The notes: a model not told the origin generated them from the letters alone. DNA of 64,000 bases from an uncultured Planctomycetia bacterium (GCA_964634935.1 CAZWJT010000004.1:30915-94914); one strand, 5' to 3'. Positions 30,066 to 51,340 are shown, counted from the stretch's first letter. Numbers and translations are program-made.

Positions 30066-30138
30066 GCGCCCATAGCTCAAAAGGATAGAGCGCAGGCCTC
30101 CTAAGCCTGACATCGCCGTTCGATTCGGCGTGGGCGCA
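30066..30138 (+). tRNA. tRNA-Arg (anticodon CCT)
   Basis: A manually folded cloverleaf. The acceptor GCGCCCA pairs with TGGGCGC, the D-arm is GCTC/GAGC, the anticodon stem is CAGGC/GCCTG with loop CTCCTAA (U33, CCT, A37), and the T-arm is CGCCG-TTCGATT-CGGCG. The discriminator is A, and no CCA is encoded. Confidence 0.85.
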
Positions 30139-30171: not shown

Positions 30172-30199
30172 TTGCTAATTCAACAGGTACGATTATAAT
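30172..30199 (+). promoter_or_regulatory. Near-consensus promoter TTGCTA-16-TATAAT driving the glycosylation locus (leaderless/short-leader start at 30212)
   Basis: Seen in the sequence between the tRNA and the first GT2. There are only ~12 nt from the -10 to the ATG and no SD. Confidence 0.45.
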
Positions 30200-30211: not shown

Positions 30212-31189
30212 ATGAGCGAACCAGTCCTTTCTGTTATAGTTCCAATCTACAACGAAGAAGAAGTGCTTCCTCACTTATACACACAAACAAAAACAGTCCT
30301 TGAACGGCTTGCTGTTCCATATGAAATCATTTTTATTGACGACGGAAGTAAAGACGCATCGCTCTCCCTGCTGAAAAAGTTCTCTCAGGAAAATCAGGCA
30401 GTAAAAATCATTTCTTTTTCAAGGAATTTCGGTCATCAGACAGCGCTTACGGCTGGTTTACAGTTTACTTCAGGAAAAGCCGTTGCGATTCTCGATGGAG
30501 ATCTCCAAGACCCTCCAGAGGTAATCGAGAAATTTTTTGAACAATGGAAGAACGGCTACGAAGTAGTATACGGAATACGGTTGAACAGAAAAGAGAATCC
30601 CCTGAAACGCATTCTCTATAAACTCTATTACCGCCTCTTGCGAATCCTTTCAAAAACGGTCATTCCTCTTGATAGCGGAGACTGCTGTTTAATGGACCGG
30701 ACTATTGTGGCTCTCTTGAACAAAATGCCTGAACGAAACCGCTTTATCCGTGGGCTGCGGAGCTGGGTTGGATTCCGTCAGATTGGCATTCCCTATGATC
30801 GCGATAGGAGATTTGCCGGAAAACCAAAATATACATTATTAAAATTAGTCAGGCTTGGGCTAGACGGAATAATTTCTTTTTCCGAAATCCCCTTGAAAGG
30901 ATCAATTATCATCGGCTTTTCCATCTCCACGCTGAGCGTTTTCTATTCCCTCTATATCATTCTCAATCGTCTCTTTCACGCCACCGATCGCCTCCCCGGA
31001 TGGTCAACCATCGTTGTAGCGATCACATTTCTCGGAGGTATCCAGCTTATGGTGATGGGCTTTCTCGGAGAATATGTGCTCAGAATTTATGATGAAATCA
31101 AAGGAAGGCCTCAGTATATTATCGATTCGCTTATCGGATTCAACGCCCACGCTCATGCCGAAGATATCAGTAATCATTCCCGCCCATAA
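30212..31189 (+). CDS. GT2 polyprenyl-phosphate glycosyltransferase (GtrB/CsbB/ArnC-like) with C-terminal TM anchor
   Basis: The LSVIVPIYNEEE...IIFIDDGSKD...DGDLQDPPE motifs of DPM1-like GT2 are present, with two C-terminal TM helices. Confidence 0.85.
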   Translation: MSEPVLSVIVPIYNEEEVLPHLYTQTKTVLERLAVPYEIIFIDDGSKDASLSLLKKFSQENQAVKIISFSRNFGHQTALTAGLQFTSGKAVAILDGDLQDPPEVIEKFFEQWKNGYEVVYGIRLNRKENPLKRILYKLYYRLLRILSKTVIPLDSGDCCLMDRTIVALLNKMPERNRFIRGLRSWVGFRQIGIPYDRDRRFAGKPKYTLLKLVRLGLDGIISFSEIPLKGSIIIGFSISTLSVFYSLYIILNRLFHATDRLPGWSTIVVAITFLGGIQLMVMGFLGEYVLRIYDEIKGRPQYIIDSLIGFNAHAHAEDISNHSRP

Positions 31190-32105
31190 TGCCGAACGAT
31201 ATATCCACGATTGCCTCAAATCACTCCAGAGTCAAACATTTAAAGATTTTGAGATTATCGTTATAAACGACGGATCAAATGACACAACGGCAGCCTGTGC
31301 TGCCCCGTATGCGCGCGTTATTACCACTCCGCATCGGGGAATCGGAGCCGCCCGAAACACCGGAGCACAGCATGCCCAGGGGGATATTCTTGTCTTTACC
31401 GATTCGGATGTGGTTGTGCCTTCTCGATGGCTTGAAAGAATCGAACAGACGATGCGTACACGGCAGATTGAATGTTGCGGAGGAGGATACTGTGGGAGCA
31501 TCGGAAACTCCTTTCTTGAACTCTTTGCCTATTATGAATTGGCATATCGCCGGAAAAAAATTCCGGATTTCGTCCATACGCTTGTCGCGAACAACTTTGC
31601 TTGTTCAAAAACAGTATTCTTTGCTTCTGGGGGTTTTCCGGAGAAATACACCTGCGAAGACATGCGGCTTTCTTTCCGAATCAGTCGAACCAATAAAATT
31701 TTCTGGGATAAAGAAAATTGCGTCTTCCATCACTTTAAAACAGATTTCAAGGCATACCTACGGCAACAATTCCGATTTGCAAGAGATACGGTCATCGCAT
31801 ATATCCAAGACCCTGCGATGTTCTTGGTCCAAACCCATCAAGGGAGAGGAATCTACTCTGAAGTGTGTTGCTGTTTCGGAATAGGAGCAACACTTTTTCT
31901 TAAACCCCTTTGGTCGCTGTATTTTCTTCTCTTGATTGTACTAATAAACAGCTCGTTTCTCCGCTTCCTTGCCGGACAACATATGCCCCTCAGGAAAAGT
32001 ATTTTGATTATCCTTGCCCGTGACGGCTCTGCTACGTGCGGAGTCCTTATGGGAATTCCTCTGGCCTTGTGGGAACTCGGGAGAAATCTATTGAAAAAGA
32101 AATGA
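31155..32105 (+). CDS. GT2 family glycosyltransferase fused to C-terminal polytopic membrane domain
   Basis: KISVIIPAHNAERYI...EIIVINDGSNDTT...DSD (DxD). The C-terminal ~100 aa are hydrophobic. The start was chosen at the internal Met, overlapping the upstream gene by 35 nt. Confidence 0.75.
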   Translation: MPKISVIIPAHNAERYIHDCLKSLQSQTFKDFEIIVINDGSNDTTAACAAPYARVITTPHRGIGAARNTGAQHAQGDILVFTDSDVVVPSRWLERIEQTMRTRQIECCGGGYCGSIGNSFLELFAYYELAYRRKKIPDFVHTLVANNFACSKTVFFASGGFPEKYTCEDMRLSFRISRTNKIFWDKENCVFHHFKTDFKAYLRQQFRFARDTVIAYIQDPAMFLVQTHQGRGIYSEVCCCFGIGATLFLKPLWSLYFLLLIVLINSSFLRFLAGQHMPLRKSILIILARDGSATCGVLMGIPLALWELGRNLLKKK

Positions 32106-32165: not shown

Positions 32166-33161
32166 ATGATCTTCGTCACAGGAGCAAATGGTCATATTGG
32201 AAGCCATATCGTAAAAAACCTTTTAGAGCATGGCTATCAGGTACGCGCATTCTGCCGTCCCGGATCACAAAGGAAAGCGCTTGAAACGATTTTACAGAAT
32301 ATCGAGATTGCCGAGGGGGATATCCTCAATCCTGTAAGTGTTGAACACGCCATGCGCGGGTGCGAAGGGGTAATCCATACCGCAACTCTCTTTTCCGTAA
32401 ATCCGTCACTCACCGAAGTAATCCTCAAAACAGCGGTTGAAGGATCTTTACATGTTGCGAAGGCGGCTTCTTTGCTCGGGGTGAAAAAATTTGTCTACAC
32501 CAGCTCCACAGCAGCGGTGGGCTCTTCTCTAAATCCTGAGGTTTTACTCGATGAAAACTCTTGGAACACACAACCTGGAAATGTCTATACTCGAGCAAAA
32601 ATAGAGGCGGAGCAAAAGCTTGTATCCTTTGCGAAGGAAAGCGGCCTGCCACTCATACGGGTGTGTCCGTCAACCGTTGTTGGACCCGGTGATTTTCGCC
32701 TCACGCCTTCAAATGCTCTCCTTAAAAAATTCATTGCACCATTTACCTTTTTCTATTTCCTCGGAGGAACGAATCTTGTGTTTGTTCGAGACATCGCTGA
32801 AGGCCACCGATTAGCCTACGAAAAAGGCAAAAGCCTTGAACGCTACATACTCTCAGGTACGAATACGACCTTCAACAATCTGACCCAACGCATTGACGCT
32901 TATCTCGGCAAGAAGAATATGCGCATATGCATGCCCTCAGCAATTCTTCTTGGAGGAGGACGAATCTGCGACTTCTTAGGCTCTATCACCGGCGCTTCTA
33001 TGCCGGCAAGTTATAAAGCCTTGAAAACACATCTTGGGTATTACTATTATTTCTCAAACTGCAAGGCGCATGAACAACTTGGGTTTACCCCTTCTACCCT
33101 AGAGCAGTTTTTACCGGAAACATTGGCCTGGATTATGAAAACTACTGCAAAGCGGCGATGA
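32166..33161 (+). CDS. NAD(P)-dependent epimerase/dehydratase (extended SDR, HpnA/DFR-like)
   Basis: A GANGHIGSHIV Rossmann motif and a YTRAK catalytic YxxxK. Confidence 0.85.
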   Translation: MIFVTGANGHIGSHIVKNLLEHGYQVRAFCRPGSQRKALETILQNIEIAEGDILNPVSVEHAMRGCEGVIHTATLFSVNPSLTEVILKTAVEGSLHVAKAASLLGVKKFVYTSSTAAVGSSLNPEVLLDENSWNTQPGNVYTRAKIEAEQKLVSFAKESGLPLIRVCPSTVVGPGDFRLTPSNALLKKFIAPFTFFYFLGGTNLVFVRDIAEGHRLAYEKGKSLERYILSGTNTTFNNLTQRIDAYLGKKNMRICMPSAILLGGGRICDFLGSITGASMPASYKALKTHLGYYYYFSNCKAHEQLGFTPSTLEQFLPETLAWIMKTTAKRR

Positions 33162-34681
33162 AAATACTGATCGTTAATCCGCCATTCTATCGACTCCAAC
33201 GCAGTTCGCTTGTGCATTACCCTCCTGGATGTTGCTACATGGCTGCAGTTCTTGAAAAAGCCGGATTCGCCTCTCATATCTATAATGCAGATTACGATCC
33301 AAGAAAAAATACAATCCTTGGAAACACCAACCATATTAACGTACGAGCGCTCACTGAACTTTCAGACGAATACGAACAGCGGCTGGCGAATGACGCAGAT
33401 CCAATCTGGCAAGAGGTGACTGCATACCTAAAATCTACAAATCCGGATGTTTTGATCATCAGTATTTTCAACACAACACTTACGGCTGGAATTAAAATCG
33501 CCCAGAAAGCAAAAATAATCAATTCATCAGTAAAAATTGTTTTTGAGGCAAGCACAAACCGCGGCCTCCACTGCGCGCTTGATCCTGCAGTGAGCGTCGA
33601 TCCAAAAAATATGGACTTTGCCCTGCGAAAAGAGCCAGAAGAAACCATAGTTGAACTTGTCCGCGCTCTTACTGAAAATGCCACTGATTTTTCTTCAATC
33701 CAGGGACTGAGTTGGAAAAATAACCAAGGAATACTCATCCATAATCCAGATAGACCGCCACTACAGAATCTGGATCTCCTCCCATTTCCCGCACGCCACC
33801 TACTTGATGGACATGAAAAAATGCCTCCCCACACATTCCAAGGTATTTATGGCTCTCGGGGATGTCCCTTTGATTGTATTTTTTGCGGTTGCCATACAAG
33901 CTGGGGTTATATGCCTCGATTGCGTTCAGCAAAAAACATGGTCGATGAGATTGCATTCGTACACAAGCGCTTCAGAACTACTTATTTTTATATTTGCGAT
34001 GACATTTTTTTTATTCAAAAAGATAGGGCAAGGGAATTCTGCGAGCTGATACTTGAGAAAAAACTTCCCGTTTATTGGTCGGCACAGACCAGAGCAGAGA
34101 TGGCTGATGAAAAAACCCTGCGGCTCATGAAACAAGCAGGAGGACAGCACATTGCCGTCGGAGTAGAAGTAGGCAACCCCCATGTCCGCGAACTTATCCG
34201 CAAAGGCAACACCGTTGACGATGTGCGTCGATGTGCTCGTCTCATCAAAAAAACCGGGCTACACATGGTTGCTTTTTGCATGATTGGACTACCTTGGGAA
34301 GGAGAAGAAGAAATACAAGATACAGTGCGCCTGATTAAAGAAATTGACCCGTATATCGTTTATCCTTACATGCCTACCCCGGCAAGCGGAACCGAATTAG
34401 CAAAAATCCTTACCGAAAAAAACCCCATAGGGTTCGCCCAATATCGCGATCGTTGTCACATCAACACCTCTGCAACGCTTGCCGAACGGCTCAGCCCGGA
34501 ACTCAAGAAAAAAGTAATCGAGAAAGCTCTTATGGAGTTTGTTAAAATCAACAGGAAAAATTTACTTTTTGATCTGATGCGGCGGCCACAATTCTATATC
34601 GCCCTGGCGCATGATATGCGTTTTTTCACACATCCAAAGTTTCTTTTCTATTATTTCCGCGACTATTGCAAACCGTCTTAA
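33158..34681 (+). CDS. B12-binding domain radical SAM protein (class B)
   Basis: 507 aa with an N-terminal B12-binding-like domain and a GSRGCPFDCIFCG CX3CX2C motif. A 4-nt overlap with the upstream epimerase. Confidence 0.85.
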   Translation: MKILIVNPPFYRLQRSSLVHYPPGCCYMAAVLEKAGFASHIYNADYDPRKNTILGNTNHINVRALTELSDEYEQRLANDADPIWQEVTAYLKSTNPDVLIISIFNTTLTAGIKIAQKAKIINSSVKIVFEASTNRGLHCALDPAVSVDPKNMDFALRKEPEETIVELVRALTENATDFSSIQGLSWKNNQGILIHNPDRPPLQNLDLLPFPARHLLDGHEKMPPHTFQGIYGSRGCPFDCIFCGCHTSWGYMPRLRSAKNMVDEIAFVHKRFRTTYFYICDDIFFIQKDRAREFCELILEKKLPVYWSAQTRAEMADEKTLRLMKQAGGQHIAVGVEVGNPHVRELIRKGNTVDDVRRCARLIKKTGLHMVAFCMIGLPWEGEEEIQDTVRLIKEIDPYIVYPYMPTPASGTELAKILTEKNPIGFAQYRDRCHINTSATLAERLSPELKKKVIEKALMEFVKINRKNLLFDLMRRPQFYIALAHDMRFFTHPKFLFYYFRDYCKPS

Positions 34682-34685
34682 AGGT

Positions 34686-35720
34686 ATGAGCCTAGTACAG
34701 AAAGCTTCATTTCTCGCATCTCTTTGCTTTGCCCGCGCTCTGCACCGGAGAATTCCTTTAACTGTTATTTTTAATATTACGGATCACTGTAATGCCAATT
34801 GCGGTTATTGTTACGCGCGCTATTTTCAAAGAAATCTCCCGGAACTCGGAATTCAAGAGATAAATACAATCCTCTCTGAATTGAGAACGATGGGATGCAA
34901 ACGGATAAGCCTTGGAGGAGGAGAGCCGCTTCTGCGCAAAGACCTTGCCAGAATTATTGAAGCAATAAAGAAAAATGGGATGGAATGCATTATAAATTCA
35001 AACGGAATACTTGTCCCAGAGAAAATAGAGATATTGCGCCGGGTAAACGCGCTCTGCATCAGCCTTGACGGCCCAGAAAATGTACATGATACATACCGCG
35101 GGAAAGGAAGCTTTCAAAAAGTACTCCTTGCGATTGAAACTGCTTCCGCGCATAGAATACCCCTTCATACCAACACTGTCCTCCACCATAACAATATCAA
35201 CTCGATCGACTTTATCCTTACACTCGCAAAAAAATATGGTTTTTTTGCTGAATTTAATATCGCGATAGCACCACTTTCTGAAACGAACAAGGCTGCTCCC
35301 TACAAAGCCTCTGAAGAAGAAATCCGCACAACAATGCGAAAACTCATTCAATACAAAAAAGCAGGTCACAACATTCTTTTTTCCAAAAAAGCATTTGAAC
35401 TCGCCTTAGCTTGGCCAGACTATGGCAAAGAATCGCTGCCTAGCATACCAAACACTCAATATCCGGCATGCGCCGCGGGAAGTTATTTTTGTTTCATTGA
35501 TACTGATGGAGGAGTATACGCGTGCCCGCATTTAATCGGAAAAGTTCAACCGCTTAAAGCACAAGATGGATTTCGACAGGCCTTCGAAAAACTAGCGCGG
35601 CCTTCGTGCTCAGCTTGTTATCAAGTATACCACAACGAGTTTAATCTACTCTTTAATCTTGATATTGAAGTAATCGCTAATTACGGGCTTAATACAATCT
35701 TGCGGTTGTTTCGAAAATAA
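34686..35720 (+). CDS. Radical SAM/SPASM-domain protein, paralog 1 (subfamily A)
   Basis: CNANCGYC (CX3CX2C) near the N-terminus, the GGGEPLLRKD motif, and a C-terminal Cys cluster (CAAGSYFCFIDTDGGVYACPHL...CSACYQ) of SPASM/twitch type. Confidence 0.85.
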   Translation: MSLVQKASFLASLCFARALHRRIPLTVIFNITDHCNANCGYCYARYFQRNLPELGIQEINTILSELRTMGCKRISLGGGEPLLRKDLARIIEAIKKNGMECIINSNGILVPEKIEILRRVNALCISLDGPENVHDTYRGKGSFQKVLLAIETASAHRIPLHTNTVLHHNNINSIDFILTLAKKYGFFAEFNIAIAPLSETNKAAPYKASEEEIRTTMRKLIQYKKAGHNILFSKKAFELALAWPDYGKESLPSIPNTQYPACAAGSYFCFIDTDGGVYACPHLIGKVQPLKAQDGFRQAFEKLARPSCSACYQVYHNEFNLLFNLDIEVIANYGLNTILRLFRK

Positions 35721-35725
35721 ATAGC

Positions 35726-36754
35726 ATGAGCATCCAGAACCGTTTCGCATTCATGGCGCGTTTGATCAAAGACCGGATTTCCGGAAAGGCAACACCGCTC
35801 GTTGTGGTGCTCAATACTACATTTCGCTGTAATTTACGTTGCGGGTATTGTTATGGTCAATACTTCCAAAGAACTGACGAAGATTTTACCACCGTTGAAC
35901 TTCTGGGACTGATCGACGACCTGAGTAAATTAGGAACTCGTTCGATCACCTTGGGGGGTGGTGAGCCTCTTCTGCGCCAAGATATTGGCCAAATTATCGA
36001 TAGGATAAAACAACACGGCATCGAATGCGGGATGAACACAAACGGCATACTGATTCCTCAACGGCTAGACATGTTGAGGAAAATTGATATGGTAACAATT
36101 TCAATTGATGGACCAAAGGAATTGAACGACCGCAACAGAGGAGACGGATCCTTCGAAAAAATCATGGCCGGCTTAGAAGCGGCCCTGGCTGCAGATATAA
36201 AAGTACACACAACTACAGTGCTTACAAAACATAACTACCAGGCAATCGATTGGATTGTTGACATGGCCAGGAGAAAAAAAATTCAGGCGGAATTTAATTT
36301 CTTGTTTCACCAGAATCGGGGAAAACATGAATCCGACACTTTCATGGCCGAGGAGACATCTCTCAGAAAAGCAGCTGAACGTATCGTCGAACTCAAGAAA
36401 AAAGGAGCGCCTATTCTATTTTCAAAGAAGATCTACCAATGGGTGGCGCGCTGGCCTGATTATAAAAAGAGGATCATCCAACAAAAATCCAGATTGAAAA
36501 CCAGACTGTGCAATGCGGGAAGATTTATGATGTTCATTGATGCTGACGGAAAAGTCTATCCGTGCGTCCAGCTGATTGACGTATTTCCTGCCTTAGAATT
36601 TCGTTCCGCTGGAATCGAGAAAGCATGGCGTCACACCCATATCCATAATTGCTATGCTTGTTATTTTCCATGTTTTAATGAATTCAATGCGGTTTTTAAC
36701 CTAGATCCGGAAATCCTCTTAGAACAAATAATGAGTACCTTACAAAATCATTGA
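35726..36754 (+). CDS. Radical SAM/SPASM-domain protein, paralog 2 (subfamily A)
   Basis: CNLRCGYC, GGGEPLLRQD, and a C-terminal CNAGRF...DADGKVYPC...CYACYFPC. It is clearly paralogous to 34686-35720. Confidence 0.85.
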   Translation: MSIQNRFAFMARLIKDRISGKATPLVVVLNTTFRCNLRCGYCYGQYFQRTDEDFTTVELLGLIDDLSKLGTRSITLGGGEPLLRQDIGQIIDRIKQHGIECGMNTNGILIPQRLDMLRKIDMVTISIDGPKELNDRNRGDGSFEKIMAGLEAALAADIKVHTTTVLTKHNYQAIDWIVDMARRKKIQAEFNFLFHQNRGKHESDTFMAEETSLRKAAERIVELKKKGAPILFSKKIYQWVARWPDYKKRIIQQKSRLKTRLCNAGRFMMFIDADGKVYPCVQLIDVFPALEFRSAGIEKAWRHTHIHNCYACYFPCFNEFNAVFNLDPEILLEQIMSTLQNH

Positions 36755-37807
36755 ATGGGAAGCCTATTTGAAAAAAATCGATTCTTCTTAGCCTTGCTGA
36801 AAGGGCGCGTCTTAAAACAATCAATCCCTCTCCTGGTATTTTTTACTATCACTCATCGCTGTAACGGATCATGCCCATATTGTTTCGGGGCATATGAAAA
36901 TCCGGGAGGAAAAAATGCTGGTTTTGAGCTGAATACCGAACAAATTTTTTGCCTTATTGATCAGATGGCGGCGGCTGGAACGCAGCGCATTGGAATCAGC
37001 GGAGGAGAACCGCTTTTGCGCGACGATATCGGGAAAATAATCGATTATGCGGCTCAAAAAAAGATTCACTGCGGCCTCAACACCAACGGGTATCTCATAC
37101 CTCAGAAAATATCCGAACTTGCTAAACTAAGCAATATCACGATCAGCCTCGATGGCGACATGTTTGAACATGAACAAAATCGAGGAAAAGGCACGTATGA
37201 AAAAACAATTCTCGCGATTGAGCGGGTAAAACGCCAGAAAATTCCCCTCCATGTAAGCATGGTACTTACTCGGCACAATATGAACAGTATCCCTTTTATT
37301 CTGGAGCGTGCAAGAAAAACCGGATTCCTGGTACAAATTAGCCCGCTCTATCCTTGCGTACTCCCCGAAAAGAACAATAATTCTCTACAGCTAAGCGATG
37401 AACAACTTCGCCGAATACTCCAGCAAATTATAACTTATAAGCGCAAGGGATACCCTGTTTTTTACTCACAGACGACATACTCTCGGATTCTTTCTTGGCC
37501 TGATCTCCAGAAAGACCGCTACCTTGGAGAAAAACCGAGGTTTCCCCATGCTCCGTGCGTCATGGGAAAATACGCCTGCCTTTTAGATGCAAACGGCGAT
37601 GTCTACCCATGCGCTCAAATTCAAGGCTTAACCCCAAAAAATGCCTTAAGTATAGGGTTTAAACGAGCTTTCCAGCACATCAATAAACATCTTTGTCGCG
37701 CCTGCTCGTGGGCTTGTTACAATGAGTTGAATCTCTTGGCGCAGTTAAATCCCGAAGTAGTCATGAACACGATTAGCAATATTTTGTTTGACAAAAATCA
37801 TGCCTGA
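36755..37807 (+). CDS. Radical SAM/SPASM-domain protein, paralog 3 (subfamily A)
   Basis: CNGSCPYC, SGGEPLLRDD, and a C-terminal CVMGKYACLLDANGDVYPC...CRACSWAC. Confidence 0.85.
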   Translation: MGSLFEKNRFFLALLKGRVLKQSIPLLVFFTITHRCNGSCPYCFGAYENPGGKNAGFELNTEQIFCLIDQMAAAGTQRIGISGGEPLLRDDIGKIIDYAAQKKIHCGLNTNGYLIPQKISELAKLSNITISLDGDMFEHEQNRGKGTYEKTILAIERVKRQKIPLHVSMVLTRHNMNSIPFILERARKTGFLVQISPLYPCVLPEKNNNSLQLSDEQLRRILQQIITYKRKGYPVFYSQTTYSRILSWPDLQKDRYLGEKPRFPHAPCVMGKYACLLDANGDVYPCAQIQGLTPKNALSIGFKRAFQHINKHLCRACSWACYNELNLLAQLNPEVVMNTISNILFDKNHA

Positions 37808-38891
37808 AATCCTTTGTAGCTCTTGTAAGCAGAAAAAACTATCGGTAATCACTTCGTGCGCACAGCGCCGATGCTCCTTTCATCCACGGGGAAAAACTTT
37901 CTCCATGGAAAAACTCGCTCCTGACCGGTTATGTCTCGAAGCTTTTTTCCGGCTGTATCCATACTGCTTCGCGGCACTCTACCAAAAAGAATTTACGCCA
38001 TATCGAGTGCACTGCCCAAAAGTAGAAAATGGGGTAACGTTTCAGGTTTTCCGCAAGCCACAAAGATTCACGCGAAGGCTTATGAATTATATAAAAACTA
38101 TCATAGCAAAATTGTATCCACTTGATATTATTCGCTACCGCATTTTCATTGAAGTCCTCTCACAACAACACGATTGCCTTGAAAACCATGCGCCTGGGCA
38201 ACAATTTGAGCTGAACTTGAACCAGAAAACTACGGAAGCTTGCCCTGCTGCATTTCACAATGTCTTCCCGAGTTTTTTCGCCGGAACCTGCACGGAAAAC
38301 ACCTTGCAGCCCATAACCAGTGCGTGCCCGGACCACTGTTATGATATACAACTTACGCTCAATCCGAAAATAAATAAAAATCTGCTTCCGTCCGGTTCTC
38401 TGGAGTGTGCGGCTTATGAACATTTCACACTTGCCATACCATTCCCGGAAGAATCACACCAGAAATTTCCGCACACAAAACTTCAAACGATTTCTGAACT
38501 TCTGGGAGAAATAAGATGCCTAGGGGCATTTTGGGCTATTTTCCCATACTATCTAACCCTCTTAGAAGACGGAGAAATGACAGGATTCTATAGTAAACAT
38601 AGACATTCCGCATATGTTCAATGTCCAAGCATCGAACATAAGGTTGAAATGCTCATTGAAAAAAAAGAAGGAATTTACGTTTTACGAATCGGAAAAACAA
38701 AAAACCCGTGTCCAAAAGGACTCGTTCCCGGAATGGAAATCGCCTTAAGCGATGAAAAAAATAAATTAGTTCTACAAACCCTGCATTCAATTGTGCCGTA
38801 CGCGCTAGCGCTATCAAATCTATCGCTGTCCAACATAAACATTTACTCGCCAGACCCAAAAAAACAGTTTATAATAGAAATCAAAAAATAA
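37788..38891 (+). CDS. Cys-rich hypothetical protein (about 16 Cys; N-terminal zinc-ribbon-like CxxC-x10-Cx4C), embedded in the radical SAM array
   Basis: A 367-aa ORF translationally coupled on both sides (a 20-nt overlap upstream and TAATG downstream). No recognisable enzymatic motifs. Confidence 0.55.
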   Translation: MTKIMPEILCSSCKQKKLSVITSCAQRRCSFHPRGKTFSMEKLAPDRLCLEAFFRLYPYCFAALYQKEFTPYRVHCPKVENGVTFQVFRKPQRFTRRLMNYIKTIIAKLYPLDIIRYRIFIEVLSQQHDCLENHAPGQQFELNLNQKTTEACPAAFHNVFPSFFAGTCTENTLQPITSACPDHCYDIQLTLNPKINKNLLPSGSLECAAYEHFTLAIPFPEESHQKFPHTKLQTISELLGEIRCLGAFWAIFPYYLTLLEDGEMTGFYSKHRHSAYVQCPSIEHKVEMLIEKKEGIYVLRIGKTKNPCPKGLVPGMEIALSDEKNKLVLQTLHSIVPYALALSNLSLSNINIYSPDPKKQFIIEIKK

Positions 38892-39952
38892 TGTACACAG
38901 CGACAAAAAAAATATCGAAAGGAATCAATCTTCTGGCCACTTTCTCTTGGGCAAAACTTCAGAAGAAGCACATCCCGCTCGTTCTTTATTTCTTAGTGAC
39001 CGAACGCTGCAACTGCCGTTGTCCTTATTGCTGGATACGCCGAGATACAGAAACACTTTCTCATGAGATGTCAACTGAAACAATTCTCAAGGTAATCGAT
39101 GAATTCTACGCAATCGGCACCCGCTATATGAGCATCCTGGGTGGAGAACCGCTTTTACGGAAAGACCTCGATGTGATCGTCGAACACCTGAATAAACTCA
39201 ATATGATGAACGATATCGTTACGAACGGAACGCTCATCGAACCTCAGCTGGAAACACTGAAAAAATTTGATCTTGTTTGTGTCAGTCTCGAAGGCAATCA
39301 AGAAACCCATGATCACGACCGGGGACAAGGTACCCACGCTCAGGTTATGAAAGGCATCGAACTTCTCGCAAAACATAAAATTCGATTTCGCTTTAATACA
39401 ACCGTGACTCAGCACACTGTACATTCGTTTCCGTATGTCTTAGAGTTAGCTAAAAAATACAATGCTGCAATTTCAGTAGGCATCGCGGTGGTATCGAGCG
39501 GACAGGAAAAAGAAATTATCCCGACTGTTGAAATGATAATAGATTTCTGGAAACAAGTCAGAACTTTCAAGACTCAAGGATACCCAATTGAGAAATCAGT
39601 ACGGGCAATTGACGGTTTGATAAAAAACGCGCAATTTTTTTTGGAAAGTTCTATTTACGAGAAAGATATTCCACCTGTGCACGATTACAATCCCTGCCTT
39701 TTTGGAAAATATCTCGGTTATCTTGGCGCTGACGGAACAATATTTCCTTGTCCTCACCCGGATTTATTTGGGAAGAAAGAATTCCATTCTAATATCTTCA
39801 CCTATGGAACAAAAACCGCATGGAAAAATCTTGTCCAAAATACACCCTGCTCATTCTGCAATCTCCTGCTCGGTTGCGAAATAAATAATTTTCTCAATTT
39901 AAATGCACGAAGCGTCCTGGAGAGTGCCCGTGCGTACTTTTTTGACTGGTAA
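38891..39952 (+). CDS. Radical SAM/SPASM-domain protein, paralog 4 (subfamily B)
   Basis: ERCNCRCPYC, LGGEPLLRKD, VTNGTLI, DHDRGQGT, and a C-terminal CLFGKYLGYLGADGTIFPCPHP...CSFCNLLLGC. Confidence 0.85.
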   Translation: MYTATKKISKGINLLATFSWAKLQKKHIPLVLYFLVTERCNCRCPYCWIRRDTETLSHEMSTETILKVIDEFYAIGTRYMSILGGEPLLRKDLDVIVEHLNKLNMMNDIVTNGTLIEPQLETLKKFDLVCVSLEGNQETHDHDRGQGTHAQVMKGIELLAKHKIRFRFNTTVTQHTVHSFPYVLELAKKYNAAISVGIAVVSSGQEKEIIPTVEMIIDFWKQVRTFKTQGYPIEKSVRAIDGLIKNAQFFLESSIYEKDIPPVHDYNPCLFGKYLGYLGADGTIFPCPHPDLFGKKEFHSNIFTYGTKTAWKNLVQNTPCSFCNLLLGCEINNFLNLNARSVLESARAYFFDW

Positions 39953-39956
39953 AATT

Positions 39957-41006
39957 ATGCACAAATTTTCTAAAGGATTGAAATTTCTTTTTGCTTTCCT
40001 TTGGGCAAAACTGCGAAAAAAAGATATACCGCTTGTTGTCTCCTTTTTAATAACCGAAAAATGCAATCTGCACTGCCCGTATTGCTTCATCCGTTTTCAA
40101 GATTTTACAACTCCGGAACTCTCAACAGAATCACTCATAAAGATTATCGACGAATTCTATGCCCTGGGCATGCGCTATATCAGCATCGTAGGAGGTGAGC
40201 CCCTCTTACGCAAAGATTTAGAAGCTATTGTTACATATCTTCATAGATTAAATATCTTTACTGAACTTGTGACAAATGGAACGCTCATCGCCACGCAGCT
40301 GAACGCATTAAAAAAGATCGATTCGGTTTGCATCAGCCTGGAGGCAGACGAACAACATCATGACCATGACAGAGGAAAAGGCACATACGCCCAGATTATT
40401 CGCAATCTAAGCATCCTGCAGGAAAACAACATTCATTTTCGCTTTAATGCCACCGTGTCTCTCCATACAATCAATGCCTTTCCGCATGTCGCAGAGCTCG
40501 CAAAACAATATCGCACTTCGCTTACGGTAAACCTGGCTATTCTTGATCATAATAAATCCGAAGCCAGGCCAGACGGAAAAGAAATTCGCAGATTCTGGGA
40601 AAACGTGCGCCGTTTAAAAAAAGCAGGGTATCCGATCGAGAAATCGTACCGAACAATCGATTCACTGATCAAAAATGCCGATTTGTTTGCCCAGGGAAAA
40701 CGCTACAAAGAAAAACCGCAAGGAATCGTAGATTTTCATCGTTGTTTTTATGGGAGATTGTTTTGCTATATCGGAGCAGACGGGGCTCTATTTCCCTGTT
40801 GCCATCCTGAGCTTTACGGCAAAAAAGATTTTCAGGCAAATATTTTTGAGTATGGAGCAAAGCATGCTTGGGAAAAACTCGTCGCCCAACGCGCATGTGA
40901 ATGCTGCAATCTTACTATTGGATGCGAGATGAATAACTTTCTTGACTTAAGCATTCCAGCAATCTGGGAAAGTTTCACTGCATTTCTGTTTCACCGAAAA
41001 CAATGA
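39957..41006 (+). CDS. Radical SAM/SPASM-domain protein, paralog 5 (subfamily B)
   Basis: EKCNLHCPYC, VGGEPLLRKD, VTNGTLI, DHDRGKGT, and a C-terminal CFYGRLFCYIGADGALFPCCHP...CECCNLTIGC. It is closely paralogous to 38891-39952. Confidence 0.85.
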   Translation: MHKFSKGLKFLFAFLWAKLRKKDIPLVVSFLITEKCNLHCPYCFIRFQDFTTPELSTESLIKIIDEFYALGMRYISIVGGEPLLRKDLEAIVTYLHRLNIFTELVTNGTLIATQLNALKKIDSVCISLEADEQHHDHDRGKGTYAQIIRNLSILQENNIHFRFNATVSLHTINAFPHVAELAKQYRTSLTVNLAILDHNKSEARPDGKEIRRFWENVRRLKKAGYPIEKSYRTIDSLIKNADLFAQGKRYKEKPQGIVDFHRCFYGRLFCYIGADGALFPCCHPELYGKKDFQANIFEYGAKHAWEKLVAQRACECCNLTIGCEMNNFLDLSIPAIWESFTAFLFHRKQ

Positions 41007-41764
41007 AACGATCACAACGCGAAAAAATAATTTCTCCCGAATATTTACCAGGACAAATAATCTGGTCATGTAAGTTTTTCTGGGACAGCGCATGTCTCCT
41101 TATCCGCCAACCATCAAGGGCTTCTCTCGAATATATGCAACTTGCTGCGCGGGTTATTCCGAAATACACAATGCTTAGCCTACCGCGCTTAATGAATCTC
41201 GTAAATTTGATAAAAACCATTAACAAGAAAAACATTGAAGGTGATGTTGTCGAATGTGGCACGTGGAATGGAGGAGCAGCAGCAGTAATGGCAGCGTATC
41301 AAGAAAAAACACTCAATACTACCTTACCACCGCGACATTTCTGGCTTTTTGATTCATTTCAAGGTCTACCCAAACCTACGGCAAATGACGGAGCACTCCT
41401 TACTGATAACCATATTCAAGGATTATTTAAAGGAAATCCGGAGTATATAAAAAGATTGTTCTTGCAACTGCGGATTCCATCAGAACATCTCCATATCATT
41501 CCTGGATGGTTTCAGCAAACTATACCCGAAGTAAGAAATAGGAAAATAGCGCTGCTCCATATTGATGCCGATCTCTATGATTCGATTTTTAATGTCTTGG
41601 AACAACTTTATGATACAATAGTGCCGCGAGGATTCTGTGTGTGCGACGACTATTCCTGGAGCGGAGGGAAAAAAGCGATTGACACATTCCTCGAAAAAAG
41701 GGGACTGGGGAATCAAGAAAAGTTCTTTATTGACGGCGCAATTTATTTTCAAAAACCAGAATAA
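41003..41764 (+). CDS. TylF/MycF-family class I SAM-dependent O-methyltransferase (macrocin-O-methyltransferase-like)
   Basis: A VECGTWNGG SAM-binding motif and IDADLYDS are typical of TylF-type sugar O-methyltransferases. A 4-nt overlap with the upstream gene. Confidence 0.8.
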   Translation: MKRSQREKIISPEYLPGQIIWSCKFFWDSACLLIRQPSRASLEYMQLAARVIPKYTMLSLPRLMNLVNLIKTINKKNIEGDVVECGTWNGGAAAVMAAYQEKTLNTTLPPRHFWLFDSFQGLPKPTANDGALLTDNHIQGLFKGNPEYIKRLFLQLRIPSEHLHIIPGWFQQTIPEVRNRKIALLHIDADLYDSIFNVLEQLYDTIVPRGFCVCDDYSWSGGKKAIDTFLEKRGLGNQEKFFIDGAIYFQKPE

Positions 41765-42474
41765 TGAAAACCACTCTACTCATCCCAACGCTGAATGAAA
41801 TTATCGGAATGAAAAAAATCATGCCTACGATTTCAAAGAATTGGGTAGACCAGATTATTATTTTAGATGGCGGATCAACCGACGGAACAATTGAATACGC
41901 ACAAAAAGAAGGATACACATGCATTGTCCAGAAAAAACCAGGATTGCGGAATGGATACCTGGAAGCGTGGCCGTACATTCAAGGTGATATTGTGATTACT
42001 TTCAGTCCTGACGGTAATTCACTGAGTAGCCGCATCCCCGAATTAATCGAAAAAATGAAAGAGGGGTACGATATGGTCATTGTTTCCCGGTACGCCAACG
42101 GCGCCAAAAGTTATGATGACGACGCAATTACGAGATTCGGCAATTGGATGTTTACAACAACAATCAACCTTCTCTTTAAAGCTCATTACACGGATGCAAT
42201 GGTAATCTTTCGAGCTTATAAGAAAAATCTTGTATACGCACTAGGCCTTGATCAGGAACAGACATACTCACCAGAAAAATTGTTTGCCACATGGATAAGC
42301 TGGGAGCCAATTCTTTCTGTCCGTTGCGCCAAAAAAAGACTACACGTAGGGGAAATCCCCGGCGATGAACCTCCACGAATCGGAGGAGAAAGAAAACTCC
42401 AGGTTCTGCGCTGGGGAGGTGCCTATTTTACGCAAATTCTCAGAGAATTGTTTTTTTGGAAAAATACACAATGA
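41764..42474 (+). CDS. GT2 family glycosyltransferase (short, DPM1-like)
   Basis: LLIPTLNE...IIILDGGSTDGT... It is paralogous to 54016-54684. Confidence 0.8.
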   Translation: MKTTLLIPTLNEIIGMKKIMPTISKNWVDQIIILDGGSTDGTIEYAQKEGYTCIVQKKPGLRNGYLEAWPYIQGDIVITFSPDGNSLSSRIPELIEKMKEGYDMVIVSRYANGAKSYDDDAITRFGNWMFTTTINLLFKAHYTDAMVIFRAYKKNLVYALGLDQEQTYSPEKLFATWISWEPILSVRCAKKRLHVGEIPGDEPPRIGGERKLQVLRWGGAYFTQILRELFFWKNTQ

Positions 42475-43478
42475 ATCATTCTTGCGACAGTTCAGAAAGT
42501 TTTCCCACAGAGATAGCCGAAGATATTCTTCTGCGGCTTTATACTATCATGATGCAGATTCGGCTTGTTGAATTAAGGATAGAAGAAGAATATCCAAAAA
42601 ATCAGATAAAAACCCCTATACACCTATGCATCGGCCAAGAAGCAACCGCAGCAGGAATCTGTATCCATCTCACCAAAGACGATTATCTCTTTAGCAACCA
42701 TCGCGGACACGGCCATTACTTGGCTAAAGGCGGTAATTTGGCAGCGATGATAGCCGAACTTTACTGCAAAAAGACCGGTTGTGCTGAATCGCGAGGAGGC
42801 TCGATGCACCTCATCGATACTGACTGCGGAATAATGGGTTCGTCCTCAATTGTAGCGGGAAATATCCCTATTGCTACCGGAGCAGCTTTAACCTCTCGCT
42901 TGAAACAACAAGGCAAAATCTCTGTTGTTTTTTTTGGCGATGGGGCTTCCGAGGAAGGGGTATTCTTTGAAAGTATGAATTTCGCGGCGCTTAAGAAATT
43001 GCCGATTCTTTTTGTATGCGAAAATAACTTTTATTCAGTTTGCTCACACCAGAGTGCCCGTCAAGCGAACCTCAATATTGCCCAACGCGCTAACGCTTTT
43101 GGGATCAAGAACTTACGGATCGACGCCTCAAATGTGCTTACGGTTTATCAGCATGCGCAAGAAATTATCGCATCAATGCGCGCGCTGAACGAACCATTCT
43201 TGCTTGAATGTCAAGCGTATCGGTTCCGCGGCCATGCTGGAGAAAATGACCCACTGAAAGATGAGTATCGGAACCTCATGGAATGGAAAACCTGGATGCA
43301 AAAAGACCCTGTGGAAAATTTTGAGATCCTGCTTACCCAACAAAACATACTGACTCCAGAAAAAAAAGATTCTCTCATCCAAACGTTACGCCAGCAGATT
43401 GATGCAGCATTTGTCTTTGCCCAAACATCCCCGCTCCCAAAAAGCGAAGAACTATTTGATAATCTTTACCACCCATAA
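42471..43478 (+). CDS. Thiamine-diphosphate-dependent dehydrogenase E1 component, alpha subunit (stand-alone, sugar-locus type)
   Basis: HLCIGQEA...HRGHGHYLAKGG...GSMHL...GIMGSSSIVAGNIPIATG...FFGDGASEEGVFFESMNFA...FVCENNFYS are E1-alpha TPP-binding motifs. There are no E2/E3 genes nearby. Confidence 0.9.
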   Translation: MNHSCDSSESFPTEIAEDILLRLYTIMMQIRLVELRIEEEYPKNQIKTPIHLCIGQEATAAGICIHLTKDDYLFSNHRGHGHYLAKGGNLAAMIAELYCKKTGCAESRGGSMHLIDTDCGIMGSSSIVAGNIPIATGAALTSRLKQQGKISVVFFGDGASEEGVFFESMNFAALKKLPILFVCENNFYSVCSHQSARQANLNIAQRANAFGIKNLRIDASNVLTVYQHAQEIIASMRALNEPFLLECQAYRFRGHAGENDPLKDEYRNLMEWKTWMQKDPVENFEILLTQQNILTPEKKDSLIQTLRQQIDAAFVFAQTSPLPKSEELFDNLYHP

Positions 43479-43486
43479 GAAAAACT

Positions 43487-44530
43487 ATGCCTTGGACAAA
43501 ATTCCTGATTGAAAAAGAAGAGCCGGGATATGATGAGAATCCGAAGATTACCGACCGTAAATTTACCGCTCCCCAGGCAATTTGCGAAACACTCAGTCAA
43601 GCCCTGGCGCTTGATCCAAATATTTTTGTCATGGGTCAAGGAGTCGATGATCCAACCGGAATGTTTGGCACCACCTGCGGATTACAGAAAAGATTCGGGC
43701 CTGAGCGGGTCTTTGATACACCGCTTTCTGAAAATGCCTTGACGGGAATCGCTACAGGCGCTGCGCTTACGGGATTAAAACCGATTTATCTACATAATCG
43801 ACCTGATTTTCTTCTCCTTGCCATGGATCAAATCATAAATCACGCGGCCAAACTCAGCTATATGTTTGCGGGAAAATTAAAAGTCCCCTTGGTAATTATG
43901 GCCACGATCGGTAAGGGTTGGGGTTCAGGACCCCAACATTCCCAATCACTCCACGGTTTATTTCTGCACATCCCTGGCCTAAAATTAGTAATGCCATCCA
44001 CCGCCTATGACGCCAAAGGCCTCTTGGTTTCAAGCATCGCTGACAACAACCCTGTTCTTTTTATCGAGCACCGCTGGCTTTTCAAGCACACCAGCTACGT
44101 CCCCGAAGAACTCTATGCCATACCATTTGGAAAAGGACTCGTTCGCCGCTTCGGAAACGATGTGACAATAATTGGAATCTCATACATGGTAATTGAAGCG
44201 CTGCGCGCGGCTGAAGAGTTGGCTAAACAAGGAATCGAGGCCGAAGTTCTAGATCCACGAACACTCAAACCTCTTGATGAAGAAATTATTCTGCAATCAA
44301 TAAAAAAAACTGGACGCTTGATTATCGTTGATACTGACTGGCTGACCGGAGGAACAGCTTCAGAAATTGCAGCGTTTGCCGCAGAAAAAGCGTTCAATTT
44401 TCTCAAAGCTCCAGTGAAGCGGATAGCCTGGCCCGATATCCCTGTGCCGAGCGGTCATACTTTGGAAGAAGCGTTCTATCCCACGGTGCAGACGATAGTC
44501 CAAAACGTTAAAGAAATAATCCAATTGTAG
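43487..44530 (+). CDS. Thiamine-diphosphate-dependent dehydrogenase E1 component, beta subunit (transketolase-like pyrimidine-binding + C-terminal domain)
   Basis: 347 aa with a typical E1-beta layout (VMGQGVDDPTGMFGTT...; C-terminal TK_C-like). Confidence 0.9.
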   Translation: MPWTKFLIEKEEPGYDENPKITDRKFTAPQAICETLSQALALDPNIFVMGQGVDDPTGMFGTTCGLQKRFGPERVFDTPLSENALTGIATGAALTGLKPIYLHNRPDFLLLAMDQIINHAAKLSYMFAGKLKVPLVIMATIGKGWGSGPQHSQSLHGLFLHIPGLKLVMPSTAYDAKGLLVSSIADNNPVLFIEHRWLFKHTSYVPEELYAIPFGKGLVRRFGNDVTIIGISYMVIEALRAAEELAKQGIEAEVLDPRTLKPLDEEIILQSIKKTGRLIIVDTDWLTGGTASEIAAFAAEKAFNFLKAPVKRIAWPDIPVPSGHTLEEAFYPTVQTIVQNVKEIIQL

Positions 44531-44537
44531 TGACAAT

Positions 44538-45470: not shown

Positions 45471-45473
45471 ACT

Positions 45474-46406: not shown

Positions 46407-46415
46407 GGAGGCTAC

Positions 46416-47402: not shown

Positions 47403-47407
47403 CGCCG

Positions 47408-48118
47408 ATGCCCTTAGACTATACTTCAGCAGATGTGGTTATTCTCTGCGGAGGAAGAGGGAAACGCCTCGGGCCACTTACGAGTAAAATCCCTAAACCA
47501 CTTCTCAGAATAAAACAGCGCCCGTTCCTTGAAATACTCATTGGCTCGCTCTACAAGCAAGGATTCCGGCGTTTTATCCTCTGCACGGGATATAAAAAAG
47601 AACTGCTGAAAAAATATTTCCAATCTCATCACGCTTATGCTCCATACATCTTTTTTTCTGAAGAAAAAAAGCCGCTTGGGACAGGAGGAGCGATATACCA
47701 CGCCCGAAAACTCATTTTGAGTGAAGCATTTTTTGTGTTGAATGGAGACAGCCTCTGCCGATACCCTCTCAAAAAAATATTTTCCTTCCATCGCCGTAAG
47801 CATGCCGATGTTTCGATTCTCTTGGCGAAGCAAAAAGAGCAGGCTGAATGCGGATTCGCGAAGCTTGATCACAACTCAAAAATTGTCACTTTTTCGGAGA
47901 AAGAAACGATCCGGACCAAAACCTATATCAATACAGGAGTTTATGTATTCAGCGGTAAAATTTTCCAGAGAGTTCCCTGGCGAGGATCATTTTCATTAGA
48001 ATATGATCTTTTCCCGAAACTCTGCAGCCATGGTAAGCTTTATGGATTGCCTAGTGTATGTACTTTCCTGGATATCGGAACCCCCCAGCGCCTTCAGAAA
48101 GCTCAGCGTTCTTTATAG
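47408..48118 (+). CDS. Sugar-phosphate nucleotidyltransferase, D-glycero-D-manno-heptose 1-phosphate guanylyltransferase (HddC)-like
   Basis: ILCGGRGKRLGPLTSKIPKPLL is a nucleotidyltransferase G-rich loop, and 236 aa is a typical HddC size. Confidence 0.75.
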   Translation: MPLDYTSADVVILCGGRGKRLGPLTSKIPKPLLRIKQRPFLEILIGSLYKQGFRRFILCTGYKKELLKKYFQSHHAYAPYIFFSEEKKPLGTGGAIYHARKLILSEAFFVLNGDSLCRYPLKKIFSFHRRKHADVSILLAKQKEQAECGFAKLDHNSKIVTFSEKETIRTKTYINTGVYVFSGKIFQRVPWRGSFSLEYDLFPKLCSHGKLYGLPSVCTFLDIGTPQRLQKAQRSL

Positions 48119-51326: not shown

Positions 51327-51340
51327 TTTCTATCCACTCG

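Follow-up and report, generated by a model that had tools for sequence, protein, structure and literature searches.

A radical SAM gene array in a putative cell-envelope glycosylation cluster of an uncultured Planctomycetia bacterium and its core unit in other phyla

We analyzed a tandem array of radical S-adenosylmethionine (SAM) genes located at 33158–42474 of a 64,000-nucleotide (nt) stretch of DNA from an uncultured Planctomycetia bacterium. This whole stretch is called the window, and all coordinates are positions in it. Open reading frames (ORFs) were listed and the window proteins were scanned with Pfam and NCBIfam. The original prediction, made from the sequence alone, described six consecutive radical SAM genes, a cysteine-rich gene, a methyltransferase and a family 2 glycosyltransferase (GT2) on one strand, and this layout is confirmed by the ORFs and domain matches: all array genes lie on the + strand and all ORFs are full length. 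The first gene is B12rSAM1 (33158–34681, 507 amino acids (aa), PF04055 E 1.6e-21), which encodes a class-B-like radical SAM protein. It is followed by three A-type radical SAM genes, namely A1 (34686–35720, PF04055 E 6e-27) and A2 (35726–36754, PF04055), which have a twitch-like C-terminal domain and represent core orthogroups 1 and 2, and A3 (36755–37807, PF04055 E 1.5e-24). The cysteine-rich gene CysR (37800–38891) encodes four TIGR04076-like repeats with 16 cysteines in 363 aa. Next come two B-type radical SAM genes, B1 (38891–39952, PF04055 E 4e-25), whose start overlaps the stop codon of CysR, and B2 (39957–41006, PF04055 E 2.5e-26). The array closes with a TylF-family O-methyltransferase gene (41003–41764, PF05711 E 1e-40) and GT2c (41764–42474, PF00535 E 1.3e-14), a short soluble GT2 of the AglJ or dolichyl-phosphate-hexose-synthase type.

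From the upstream short-chain dehydrogenase/reductase (SDR) gene SDR1 to GT2c, the successive spacers measure −4, +4, +5, 0, −8, −1, +4, −4 and −1 nt. The tight coupling proposed originally therefore holds, with a measured range of −8 to +5 nt where 0–5-nt gaps or overlaps had been stated. The array is not a self-contained unit, as had been assumed, but part of a glycan cluster of about 31 kb (30212–61660); from 30212 to about 60874 every gene of it is on the + strand and spacers are short or negative. Eight radical SAM genes lie within about 27 kb of this cluster. Its upstream end is formed by two GT2 genes, GT2a and GT2b, and its downstream end by polytopic membrane proteins that are candidate YfhO-like transferases; both the conserved GT2 pair and the YfhO-type partner, which define the system, had been missed before.

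All six radical SAM genes of the array are members of PF04055, with 77.6–102.1 bits (E 1.6e-21 to 4.8e-29) against a cut-off of 29.5. The five paralogs A1–A3, B1 and B2, each of about 345 aa, have E-values between 1e-24 and 5e-29. A1, A2 and A3 are 36–38% identical to each other (E 1e-76 to 1e-90) and B1 is 51% identical to B2 (E 1e-137), while identity between A- and B-type proteins is 27–30% (E 1e-38 to 1e-51). Paralogy of the five genes and their split into the two subfamilies proposed originally are real and far beyond chance, as supported by the pairwise identities and by a tree. A motif search found CX3CX2C (at residue 35 in A1) and GGEPLLR in all five paralogs. The longer motif GGEPLLR(K/Q)D, claimed for all of them, does not extend to A3, which has GGEPLLRDD. 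Likewise the suggested B-type markers VTNGTLI and DHDRGxGT apply to B1 and B2 of the window, while B-type orthologs have ITNGSLI or DKDRG. The methyltransferase belongs to the TylF family (140 bits, cut-off 23, profile positions 68–262 of 264), and a relative with 29% identity is found inside the radical SAM array of another locus (L010). GT2c reaches 82 bits with the AglJ model, which is below the cut-off, and no transmembrane (TM) helix is predicted in it.

In the C-terminal part of all five paralogs a motif search detected C-X12-G-X4-C, the first half-motif of a SPASM domain. The later cysteines are arranged as CX2C in A1 (C262-X12-G-X4-C280 and C308-X2-C311), as CX2CX3C in A2 and A3 (C314-X2-C317-X3-C321 in A3) and as CX2CX5C in B1 and B2 (C320-X2-C323-X5-C329 in B1). 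The motif CX2CX5CX3C was searched in the five paralogs and found in none. Scores for Pfam SPASM (PF13186) were 19.8 bits for A2 and 18.1 bits for B2, below the gathering threshold of 21.5, and the other three paralogs gave no match. Motif search and sub-threshold scores together rule out a full seven-cysteine SPASM domain, so that the SPASM label originally given to the paralogs was too strong. Only four C-terminal cysteines are invariant across 73 A-type homologs (C262, C280, C309 and C312 in A2 numbering), and seven B-type sequences conserve these positions without exception. All five paralogs keep these four, and none looks like a duplicate decayed by loss of its auxiliary-cluster cysteines. 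An AlphaFold model of A2 (AF2, predicted local distance difference test 93.7) shows a partial TIM barrel, a beta-hairpin at 268–278 between C262 and C280, and then helices. Motifs and model suggest that the C-terminal domain is probably an abridged twitch-type layout with one predicted auxiliary cluster. The partial TIM barrel, the C-terminal beta-hairpin, CX12GX4C and the later CX2C are shared with the twitch/SPASM enzymes BtrN, anSME, MoaA, SkfB and PqqE, and the C-terminal motif aligns with the C-terminal cluster motif of MoaA; the paralogs differ from these enzymes in the absence of the full seven-cysteine motif and in curated family scores far below the cut-offs. As to the proposed catalytic competence, the six genes are intact, and the five paralogs retain their radical SAM motifs and the four invariant auxiliary cysteines.

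Models for AhbC, AhbD, NirJ, MoaA, PqqE and MftC are among the top NCBIfam matches of the five paralogs (E 1e-18 to 1e-32), which would fit heme, heme d1 or other cofactor enzymes that lie inside a glycan cluster by chance. However, these matches reach 65–112 bits, while the cut-offs range from 265 to 650. Membership of the AhbC, AhbD and NirJ families is rejected at 65–109 bits against 500–650, with no Ahb or Nir genes in the window, and the paralogs thereby fall outside the heme and d1 families. For MoaA, PqqE, MftC and anSME the highest scores among the listed matches are 104 vs 284, 83 vs 381, 109 vs 265 and 65 vs 349 bits, respectively, and membership was rejected here as well. Genes for MoaB–E, PqqA–D, MftA/B or sulfatases were not found near the array, the window contains no partner gene of the pathways in question, and orthologs elsewhere always occur together with GT2 and class-B radical SAM genes. 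We give the cofactor explanation next to no weight. Judged from model scores, the five paralogs belong to no curated family. Profile matches of the A-type proteins are MoaA (E 2e-22), SkfB, BlsE and PqqE, and those of the B-type proteins SkfB, viperin-like enzymes and MoaA. BlsE, the cytosylglucuronate decarboxylase of blasticidin S biosynthesis (PDB 7vob), is matched with 18% identity and a profile E of 1e-16 in the N-terminal core only, and belongs to a nucleoside antibiotic pathway, unlike the cluster in the window.

CysR scores 65.3 bits with TIGR04076 in two scored stretches (cut-off 33) and is a member of this family; its relatives score 92–116 bits. The two halves of the protein, about 180 aa each, are homologous (E 7e-7), and each contains two TIGR04076-like repeats. 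A repeat has about three conserved cysteines, which lie in motifs like C-x2-H, LC-x2-AF-x2-L-x-PY and CP(D/S), and a fold is predicted with a template modelling score (pTM) of 0.80. The fourth repeat of the window protein (38700–38891, residues ~300–363) is without cysteines that are kept in the relatives (FCL changed to LVL, CPxC to SPDP), suggesting that one putative metal site of this CysR may be degenerate. Within TIGR04076, CysR differs by its four-repeat form of about 360 aa and by its coupling to a radical SAM gene. A redox or Fe-S relation of the TIGR04076 family has only been speculated upon (PMC8667426), and full-text searches of the literature gave nothing past speculation on its function.

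An exhaustive hidden Markov model (HMM) search of 1.84 billion proteins showed that the CysR family is small, with 263 representatives at E≤1e-3 and a basic unit of about 180 aa. Word-indexed searches had yielded only six clusters; the full family and its fusions to SDR domains appeared with the exhaustive search. CysR orthologs lie directly before a B-type radical SAM gene that overlaps their stop in three loci (L030, L031, L033). In L032 CysR is also followed by a B-type gene, which is cut by the contig end, and in L029 the contig ends 208 nt past CysR. An SDR1-like gene is present upstream of CysR in all of L029–L033, and in L033 two radical SAM genes follow CysR, as in the window. Right after CysR and B1, L031 carries a TKn-TKc-SDR-GT2d-epimerase block with 51–69% identity to the block located 12 kb downstream in the window. 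Metagenome contigs were scanned with a CysR alignment, without matches, and with a B-type alignment plus generic radical SAM patterns, which gave only distant relatives of at most 35% identity over most of the protein. These relatives showed neither CysR nor comparable synteny; L078 is 37% identical over 141 residues.

In at least seven representatives (P0192, P0218, P0223, P0196, P0200, P0240 and P0256) the TIGR04076 module is fused to an N-terminal classical SDR, and in P0157 to DUF362 and a 2x[4Fe-4S] ferredoxin. These fusions appear to be a so far unreported functional clue for the TIGR04076 family. Since relatives elsewhere are fused to SDR enzyme domains, CysR fits an enzyme or a cofactor-binding partner rather than a substrate. 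We infer from these architectures and from its gene position that the B-type radical SAM enzymes may have in CysR a partner or subunit that binds metal.

This bears on the possibility of peptide or protein maturation, in which B12-type and SPASM/twitch enzymes would modify a ribosomal substrate, possibly CysR, that is later glycosylated, similar to peptides that are made by the ribosome and modified after translation (RiPPs). Many top NCBIfam matches of the radical SAM proteins are indeed peptide maturases (WgkB, StsB, MftC, PapB), the best model for GT2b is MftF, and pairs of class-B and SPASM-type radical SAM enzymes are typical of proteusin-like RiPP clusters. But all peptide-maturase models score far below their cut-offs, and with spacers of −8 to +5 nt, 33158–42474 cannot accommodate a precursor ORF between its genes. 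Pfam and NCBIfam scans of the cluster found no RiPP recognition element, protease or exporter, and CysR itself is a 363-aa repeat protein with a predicted fold and SDR-fused relatives. The protein substrate named as an option in the original prediction is unlikely on these grounds, and we regard the entire RiPP-like alternative as very improbable.

Relationships among the paralogs were assessed with a neighbor-joining tree of 55 A- and B-type sequences, rooted on the rSAM_S sequence. It resolves an A1 clade, an A2 clade, a looser group of third radical SAM genes and a B clade, each of which spans several phyla. The best matches outside the window are 57% identical for A1, 67% for A2, 59% for B1, 51% for B2 and 42% for A3. 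A1 has orthologs in L021 (57%) and L013 (51%) and falls into a clade of its own, and A2 has about 95 homologs at 45–69% identity, all from metagenomes, metagenome-assembled genomes (MAGs) or single-amplified genomes (SAGs). The B1 orthologs, 58–59% identical, directly follow CysR orthologs. B2 is 51% identical to B1 and 50–51% to the B1 orthologs and branches outside the B1 clade, while the best outside matches of A3 (41–42%) are similar to its 36% identity to A1 and A2, without a clear ortholog among the fetched loci. By tree and identities, at least A1, A2 and B1 belong to anciently separated orthogroups and have distinct enzymes of wide conservation as their orthologs. B2 is an older duplicate of B1 inside the family, and A3 is an idiosyncratic addition; these two alone seem specific to the lineage. 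Recent tandem duplication of A1, A2 and B1 is ruled out by the tree together with the closer outside matches. The paralogs had been regarded as an expanded set for related substrates. Since A1, A2 and B1 are closer to orthologs from other phyla (57%, 67% and 59%) than to the paralogs beside them (27–51%), the copies look like distinct, anciently fixed steps instead, and such old, distinct orthogroups argue for consecutive different reactions over a recent expansion for similar substrates.

Gene neighborhoods of about 15 loci were obtained by exact look-ups and a scan of GTDB species representatives, and were annotated by BLAST against the window proteins. A core unit with the order GT2a - GT2b - B12rSAM1 - A1 - A2 recurs among them, with identities of 62–71% (B12rSAM1), 38–57% (A1) and 55–67% (A2). 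B12rSAM1, A1 and A2 occur together in L002, L004, L006, L007, L009–L013, L015 and L023, and GT2a and GT2b accompany this triad wherever the contig allows. The loci are labelled as Omnitrophota, Daviesbacteria, a Patescibacteria SAG, and MAGs assigned to Gammaproteobacteria, Planctomycetaceae, Desulfobacteraceae and Proteobacteria. The most conserved core gene is B12rSAM1, whose orthologs with 62–71% identity carry at least six phylum-level labels. By synteny and identity the locus closest to the window is L006 from Omnitrophota.

Two loci represent minimal islands. In L011, a Planctomycetaceae MAG, the order is YfhO-like - GT2a - GT2b - B12rSAM1 - A1 - A2 - YfhO (30.6 bits), flanked by divergent ROK and AraC genes. 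L004 contains the five core genes with one further radical SAM gene and a protein with nine TM helices, located between unrelated genes. In the P0012 contig an 862-aa YfhO protein lies directly 3' of A2, and L014 encodes a 748-aa protein with a significant YfhO match after the radical SAM genes. Membrane proteins of the YfhO kind are thus a frequent neighbor of the core unit. Larger arrays, with class-B and A-type genes in alternation and five to eight radical SAM genes in total, were found in L009, L010, L013, L016 and L022; L009 has three B12/A pairs, and L010 has eight radical SAM genes plus a TylF-like methyltransferase. The alternating arrays suggest a modular logic of pairs that is absent from the window. 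Recurrence of the module in many uncultured phyla implies that it is horizontally shared and that it serves a strongly selected surface structure, and the module probably makes an unusual lipid-carried surface sugar.

The first core gene of the window, GT2a (30212–31189, +, PF00535 E 3e-31), is of the PgfS/ArnC/GtrB type. It matches PgfS over the full length with 270 bits (E 2e-80, cut-off 500) and ArnC with 178 bits (E 2e-52, cut-off 529), has two C-terminal TM helices within 232–285 and a 65% identical ortholog in L006. The architecture fits a polyprenyl-phosphate glycosyltransferase, with scores that do not reach equivalog level. GT2b (31074–32105, +, PF00535 E 5e-31) also has two C-terminal hydrophobic segments; its best NCBIfam models, MftF and TIGR04283, are all below cut-off, and its orthologs are 50–52% identical. 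The longest ORF of GT2b (343 aa) overlaps GT2a by 116 nt, and an internal ATG near 31155 is the probable true start. In place of GT2b the public (Logan) annotation lists a 201-aa ORF in another frame without a Pfam match (31279–31884, +; L001 4338–4943), which is probably a mis-call.

At the other end of the cluster, Memb1 (57108–59387, +) has 11 and Memb2 (59303–60874, +) six predicted TM helices in a Kyte-Doolittle scan. Memb1 shows a weak match to the C-terminal part of YfhO (PF09586, 15.8 bits, cut-off 28.5), and the two proteins are candidates for GT-C/YfhO-like transferases. Relatives with 21–26% identity occur in L006, L011 and L014, of which the L014 protein (32.7 bits) and one L011 copy pass the YfhO cut-off. 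The window resembles three-component glycosylation systems, which consist of a GT2 of the GtrB/CsbB/PgfS kind, a flippase and a YfhO/GT-C protein: it has a PgfS/ArnC-like GT2 with two C-terminal TM helices, and YfhO-like polytopic membrane proteins lie in the same operon or island. It differs in that GT2a stays below the PgfS and ArnC equivalog cut-offs and that three to eight radical SAM genes are embedded in these loci. No GtrA-type flippase was identified in the cluster. To our knowledge, none of the known three-component systems contains radical SAM enzymes.

B12rSAM1 combines a weak B12-binding-like N-terminal domain with a radical SAM core whose cluster motif is C236-X3-C240-X2-C243. The match to the B12-binding domain (PF02310) of this gene, originally called a B12-radical SAM gene, is 27.1 bits and thus below the cut-off of 32.1. 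Its best curated models are HpnJ (166 bits), BchE (142 bits), PhpK and AprD4, with scores far below the cut-offs. Architecture and best matches make it class-B-like by prediction, the cobalamin-binding domain being sub-threshold. The nearest solved sequence is AprD4 (PDB 6fd2, E 1.8e-21), the radical SAM diol dehydratase of apramycin C3' deoxygenation, followed by a glutamine C-methyltransferase. AprD4 demonstrates that a class-B architecture need not use cobalamin. It works with the SDR partner AprD3, and the two provide a precedent for a radical SAM and SDR deoxygenation pair. SDR1 (32166–33161, +, PF01370, PF01073), an extended SDR of the HpnA/3-beta-HSD type, overlaps B12rSAM1 by 4 nt, so that here, too, a radical SAM gene and an SDR gene are linked by translational coupling; its position between GT2b and B12rSAM1 is the same in L006. 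AprD4 and B12rSAM1 share a Rossmann-like domain of the B12-binding type at the N-terminus, but the alignment covers the radical SAM core only (residues 198–429), and the NCBIfam AprD4 model gives 81 bits against 500, with HpnJ and BchE scoring higher. That the nearest solved relatives of these proteins act on sugars is consistent with a glycan substrate. A second class-B radical SAM gene, B12rSAM2 (55651–57111, +, PF04055 E 1.6e-17), passes the B12-binding cut-off with 34.8 bits and scores 167.5 bits with HpnJ, whose cut-off is 578.

The matches to hopanoid enzymes raise the alternative that a membrane lipid or isoprenoid is modified, either at a glycolipid head group or at its tail, as is the case for radical SAM enzymes of hopanoid side-chain formation, calditol synthase and ladderane-associated enzymes. 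HpnA is the best model for SDR1 (E 1e-64) and HpnJ for both class-B enzymes (E 1e-48 and 5e-49), with weaker matches to a ladderane-associated B12 radical SAM enzyme, HpnH, HpnB and HpnI. The enzyme classes are the same as those of HpnA, HpnB, HpnH, HpnI and HpnJ, namely an extended SDR, GT2, class-B and small radical SAM proteins. HpnI, a GT2, and HpnJ turn lipid-bound glucosamine into a cyclitol. All these scores remain below cut-off, however (HpnA 218 vs 368, HpnJ 166 vs 578, HpnH 65–69 vs 225 bits), and neither the window nor the fetched loci contain a squalene-hopene cyclase, squalene or lipid-synthesis gene. The module also occurs in lineages not known for hopanoids, and Daviesbacteria and Patescibacteria carry it although they generally have no de novo lipid synthesis. 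The YfhO-type partners moreover indicate glycosyl transfer from a polyprenyl carrier. We consider a lipid or isoprenoid substrate improbable.

Between the array and B12rSAM2 lies a sugar-precursor and tailoring block (42456–55654, +), as identified by Pfam and NCBIfam. It encodes E1 alpha/beta proteins with thiamine pyrophosphate (TPP), two epimerases, an HddA-like kinase, a nucleotidyltransferase, a DegT aminotransferase, an SDR and a radical SAM/SPASM protein, followed by a split transketolase, an SDR, the AglJ-like GT2d and an epimerase. The radical SAM/SPASM gene (50205–51326, +) is the only one of the cluster that passes the Pfam SPASM cut-off (32.7 bits), and its orthologs in L016, L029 and L032 are 56–58% identical. 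Two TPP-dependent two-subunit enzymes are present on the + strand, an E1 alpha/beta-like pyruvate dehydrogenase (42456–44530) and the split transketolase (51428–53217). In antibiotic pathways such TPP pairs (AviB1/AviB2-type) make two-carbon branched-chain sugars, and by analogy the pair suggests C-branched sugars here. The HddA-like GHMP kinase (D-glycero-D-manno-heptose 7-phosphate kinase model, E 1e-46, below cut-off) and the nucleotidyltransferase that follows it (46416–48118, +) point to an NDP-heptose-type precursor branch; GmhA and GmhB were not seen in the cluster.

With such genes at hand, the radical SAM enzymes might act on soluble nucleoside diphosphate (NDP)-sugars, the GT2s would use the resulting unusual donors, and the lipid carrier would be a downstream vehicle. 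The kinase, nucleotidyltransferase, DegT, epimerase, SDR and TPP C2-transfer genes would fit this, as would the nearest solved relatives, BlsE and AprD4, which act on soluble glycosides, and the TylF family, which is known from NDP- or aglycone-bound deoxysugars. On the other hand, the L011 and L004 islands combine the core radical SAM genes, GT2 and membrane proteins with no nucleotidyltransferase or NDP-sugar enzyme in the fetched flanks, and the invariant partners of the radical SAM triad are two GT2 genes, not NDP-sugar genes. Tailoring at the nucleotide-sugar stage as a reading of its own is a possibility that we hold at roughly one chance in five.

Taken as a whole, a carbohydrate or lipid-linked glycan substrate, as already claimed in the original prediction, is the best-supported reading of these data in view of the GT2, TylF, YfhO-like GT-C and sugar-nucleotide gene context. 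We give an even chance to the proposal that the array is the radical SAM tailoring section of a cell-envelope glycosylation cluster with a three-component scheme and a putative lipid-linked or nucleotide-linked substrate, and assign about two thirds of that weight to the lipid-linked stage. At the cytoplasmic face, GT2a would transfer a sugar from a nucleotide donor to polyprenyl phosphate, and a second residue may be added or repositioned by GT2b. No TM helices are predicted in the radical SAM proteins, which need SAM and a low-potential reductant; they would therefore act in the cytoplasm, before export, and remodel the sugar through abstraction of H atoms. The class-B-like enzyme might carry out C-methylation, deoxygenation or rearrangement, and the twitch-type enzymes oxidation, epimerization, decarboxylation or C-C bond formation. 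B12rSAM1 with the adjacent SDR would be followed by A1 and A2, and add-on steps would be supplied by A3, by CysR-B1-B2 and by the TylF O-methyltransferase; alternatively, the enzymes would remodel the nucleotide-sugar precursor at this stage. The lipid-linked product would then be flipped and moved by the YfhO-like GT-C proteins (Memb1, Memb2) to an acceptor in the envelope. Compared with the core unit, the window would contribute A3, CysR-B1-B2, O-methylation, two more GT2s resembling dolichyl-phosphate-hexose synthases, and NDP-sugar genes. Each individual reaction, substrate and acceptor of this scheme is what we infer from gene content. For tailoring of polyprenyl-phosphate sugars as such, precedents are the deformylase ArnD and the epimerase DprE1/DprE2, of which DprE2 is an SDR; in the ArnC-ArnD-ArnT pathway, ArnD tailors the lipid-linked sugar before flipping.

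Several points weigh against this proposal. No member of the orthogroups has been characterized, all homologs coming from MAGs or SAGs, and the radical SAM assignments are at superfamily level only, with equivalog scores far below the cut-offs. No evidence separates the lipid-linked from the nucleotide-sugar stage, and the best or notable matches of SDR1, B12rSAM1 and GT2b to HpnA, HpnJ and HpnB give a lipid substrate some probability. The YfhO match of Memb1 itself is weak. The N-terminal helix of the paralogs is basic, but its hydrophobic moment is indistinguishable from the rest of each protein; the test gave no support for an amphipathic membrane anchor or for a site of action at the membrane surface.

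Sugar tailoring by radical SAM enzymes is established for antibiotic pathways, but we know of no case in which they are fixed parts of polyprenyl-phosphate/YfhO-type envelope glycosylation. Full-text searches of the literature found no paper that joins radical SAM enzymes with this type of glycosylation, nor one that describes the module in Omnitrophota or the candidate phyla radiation (CPR). The kinds of components, radical SAM sugar tailoring and three-component glycosylation, are known; what is undescribed is that they are combined in a fixed way, and likewise the orthogroups and the CysR partner. Tentatively, and with less confidence than for the general scheme, we propose an undescribed pathway in Omnitrophota, CPR/Patescibacteria and other uncultured anaerobes. 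In this pathway a hexose on polyprenyl phosphate would be converted by three radical SAM enzymes to an unusual head group, such as a carbocyclic, C-branched, C-methylated or deoxygenated one, and then displayed on the envelope. The B-type enzymes would depend on the four-repeat TIGR04076 protein as a new partner or subunit that binds metal. If true, a lipid-carrier-bound sugar would for the first time be a target of radical SAM chemistry within a three-component glycosylation system. B12rSAM1 and A2 are kept at 55–71% identity across very distant uncultured phyla, including the genome-reduced CPR. Once the system is defined, several large radical SAM orthogroups that have no annotation, as well as the TIGR04076 family, would gain a function; such work might also bring new sugar chemistry to light and would bear on how the surface of episymbiotic and ultra-small bacteria is built. 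With seven genes, minimal islands such as L011 are of a size suited to heterologous expression.

Directly upstream of the cluster lies a tRNA-Arg(CCT) gene (30066–30138, +; Rfam 62.9 bits, ARAGORN). This border tRNA might indicate an integration site; that would agree with the patchy distribution of the core unit across phyla. The Rfam scan detected tRNA only and no riboswitch. A sigma-70-like promoter match (10/12) is located at 30172–30199, in the only sizeable intergenic region before GT2a, and is not enriched over shuffled sequences; promoter and terminator counts in the cluster were at or below shuffle expectation.

Outside the glycan cluster, the − strand carries a 430-aa radical SAM gene (7819–9111) coupled to a 610-aa ORF without a Pfam match (9108–10940). 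A HcyBio-family protein for sulfur-incorporating homocysteine biosynthesis is encoded on the + strand at 19997–21211 (PF01837, E 6e-143). Methanogens and some anaerobic bacteria typically use this route, and the gene fits an anaerobic host.

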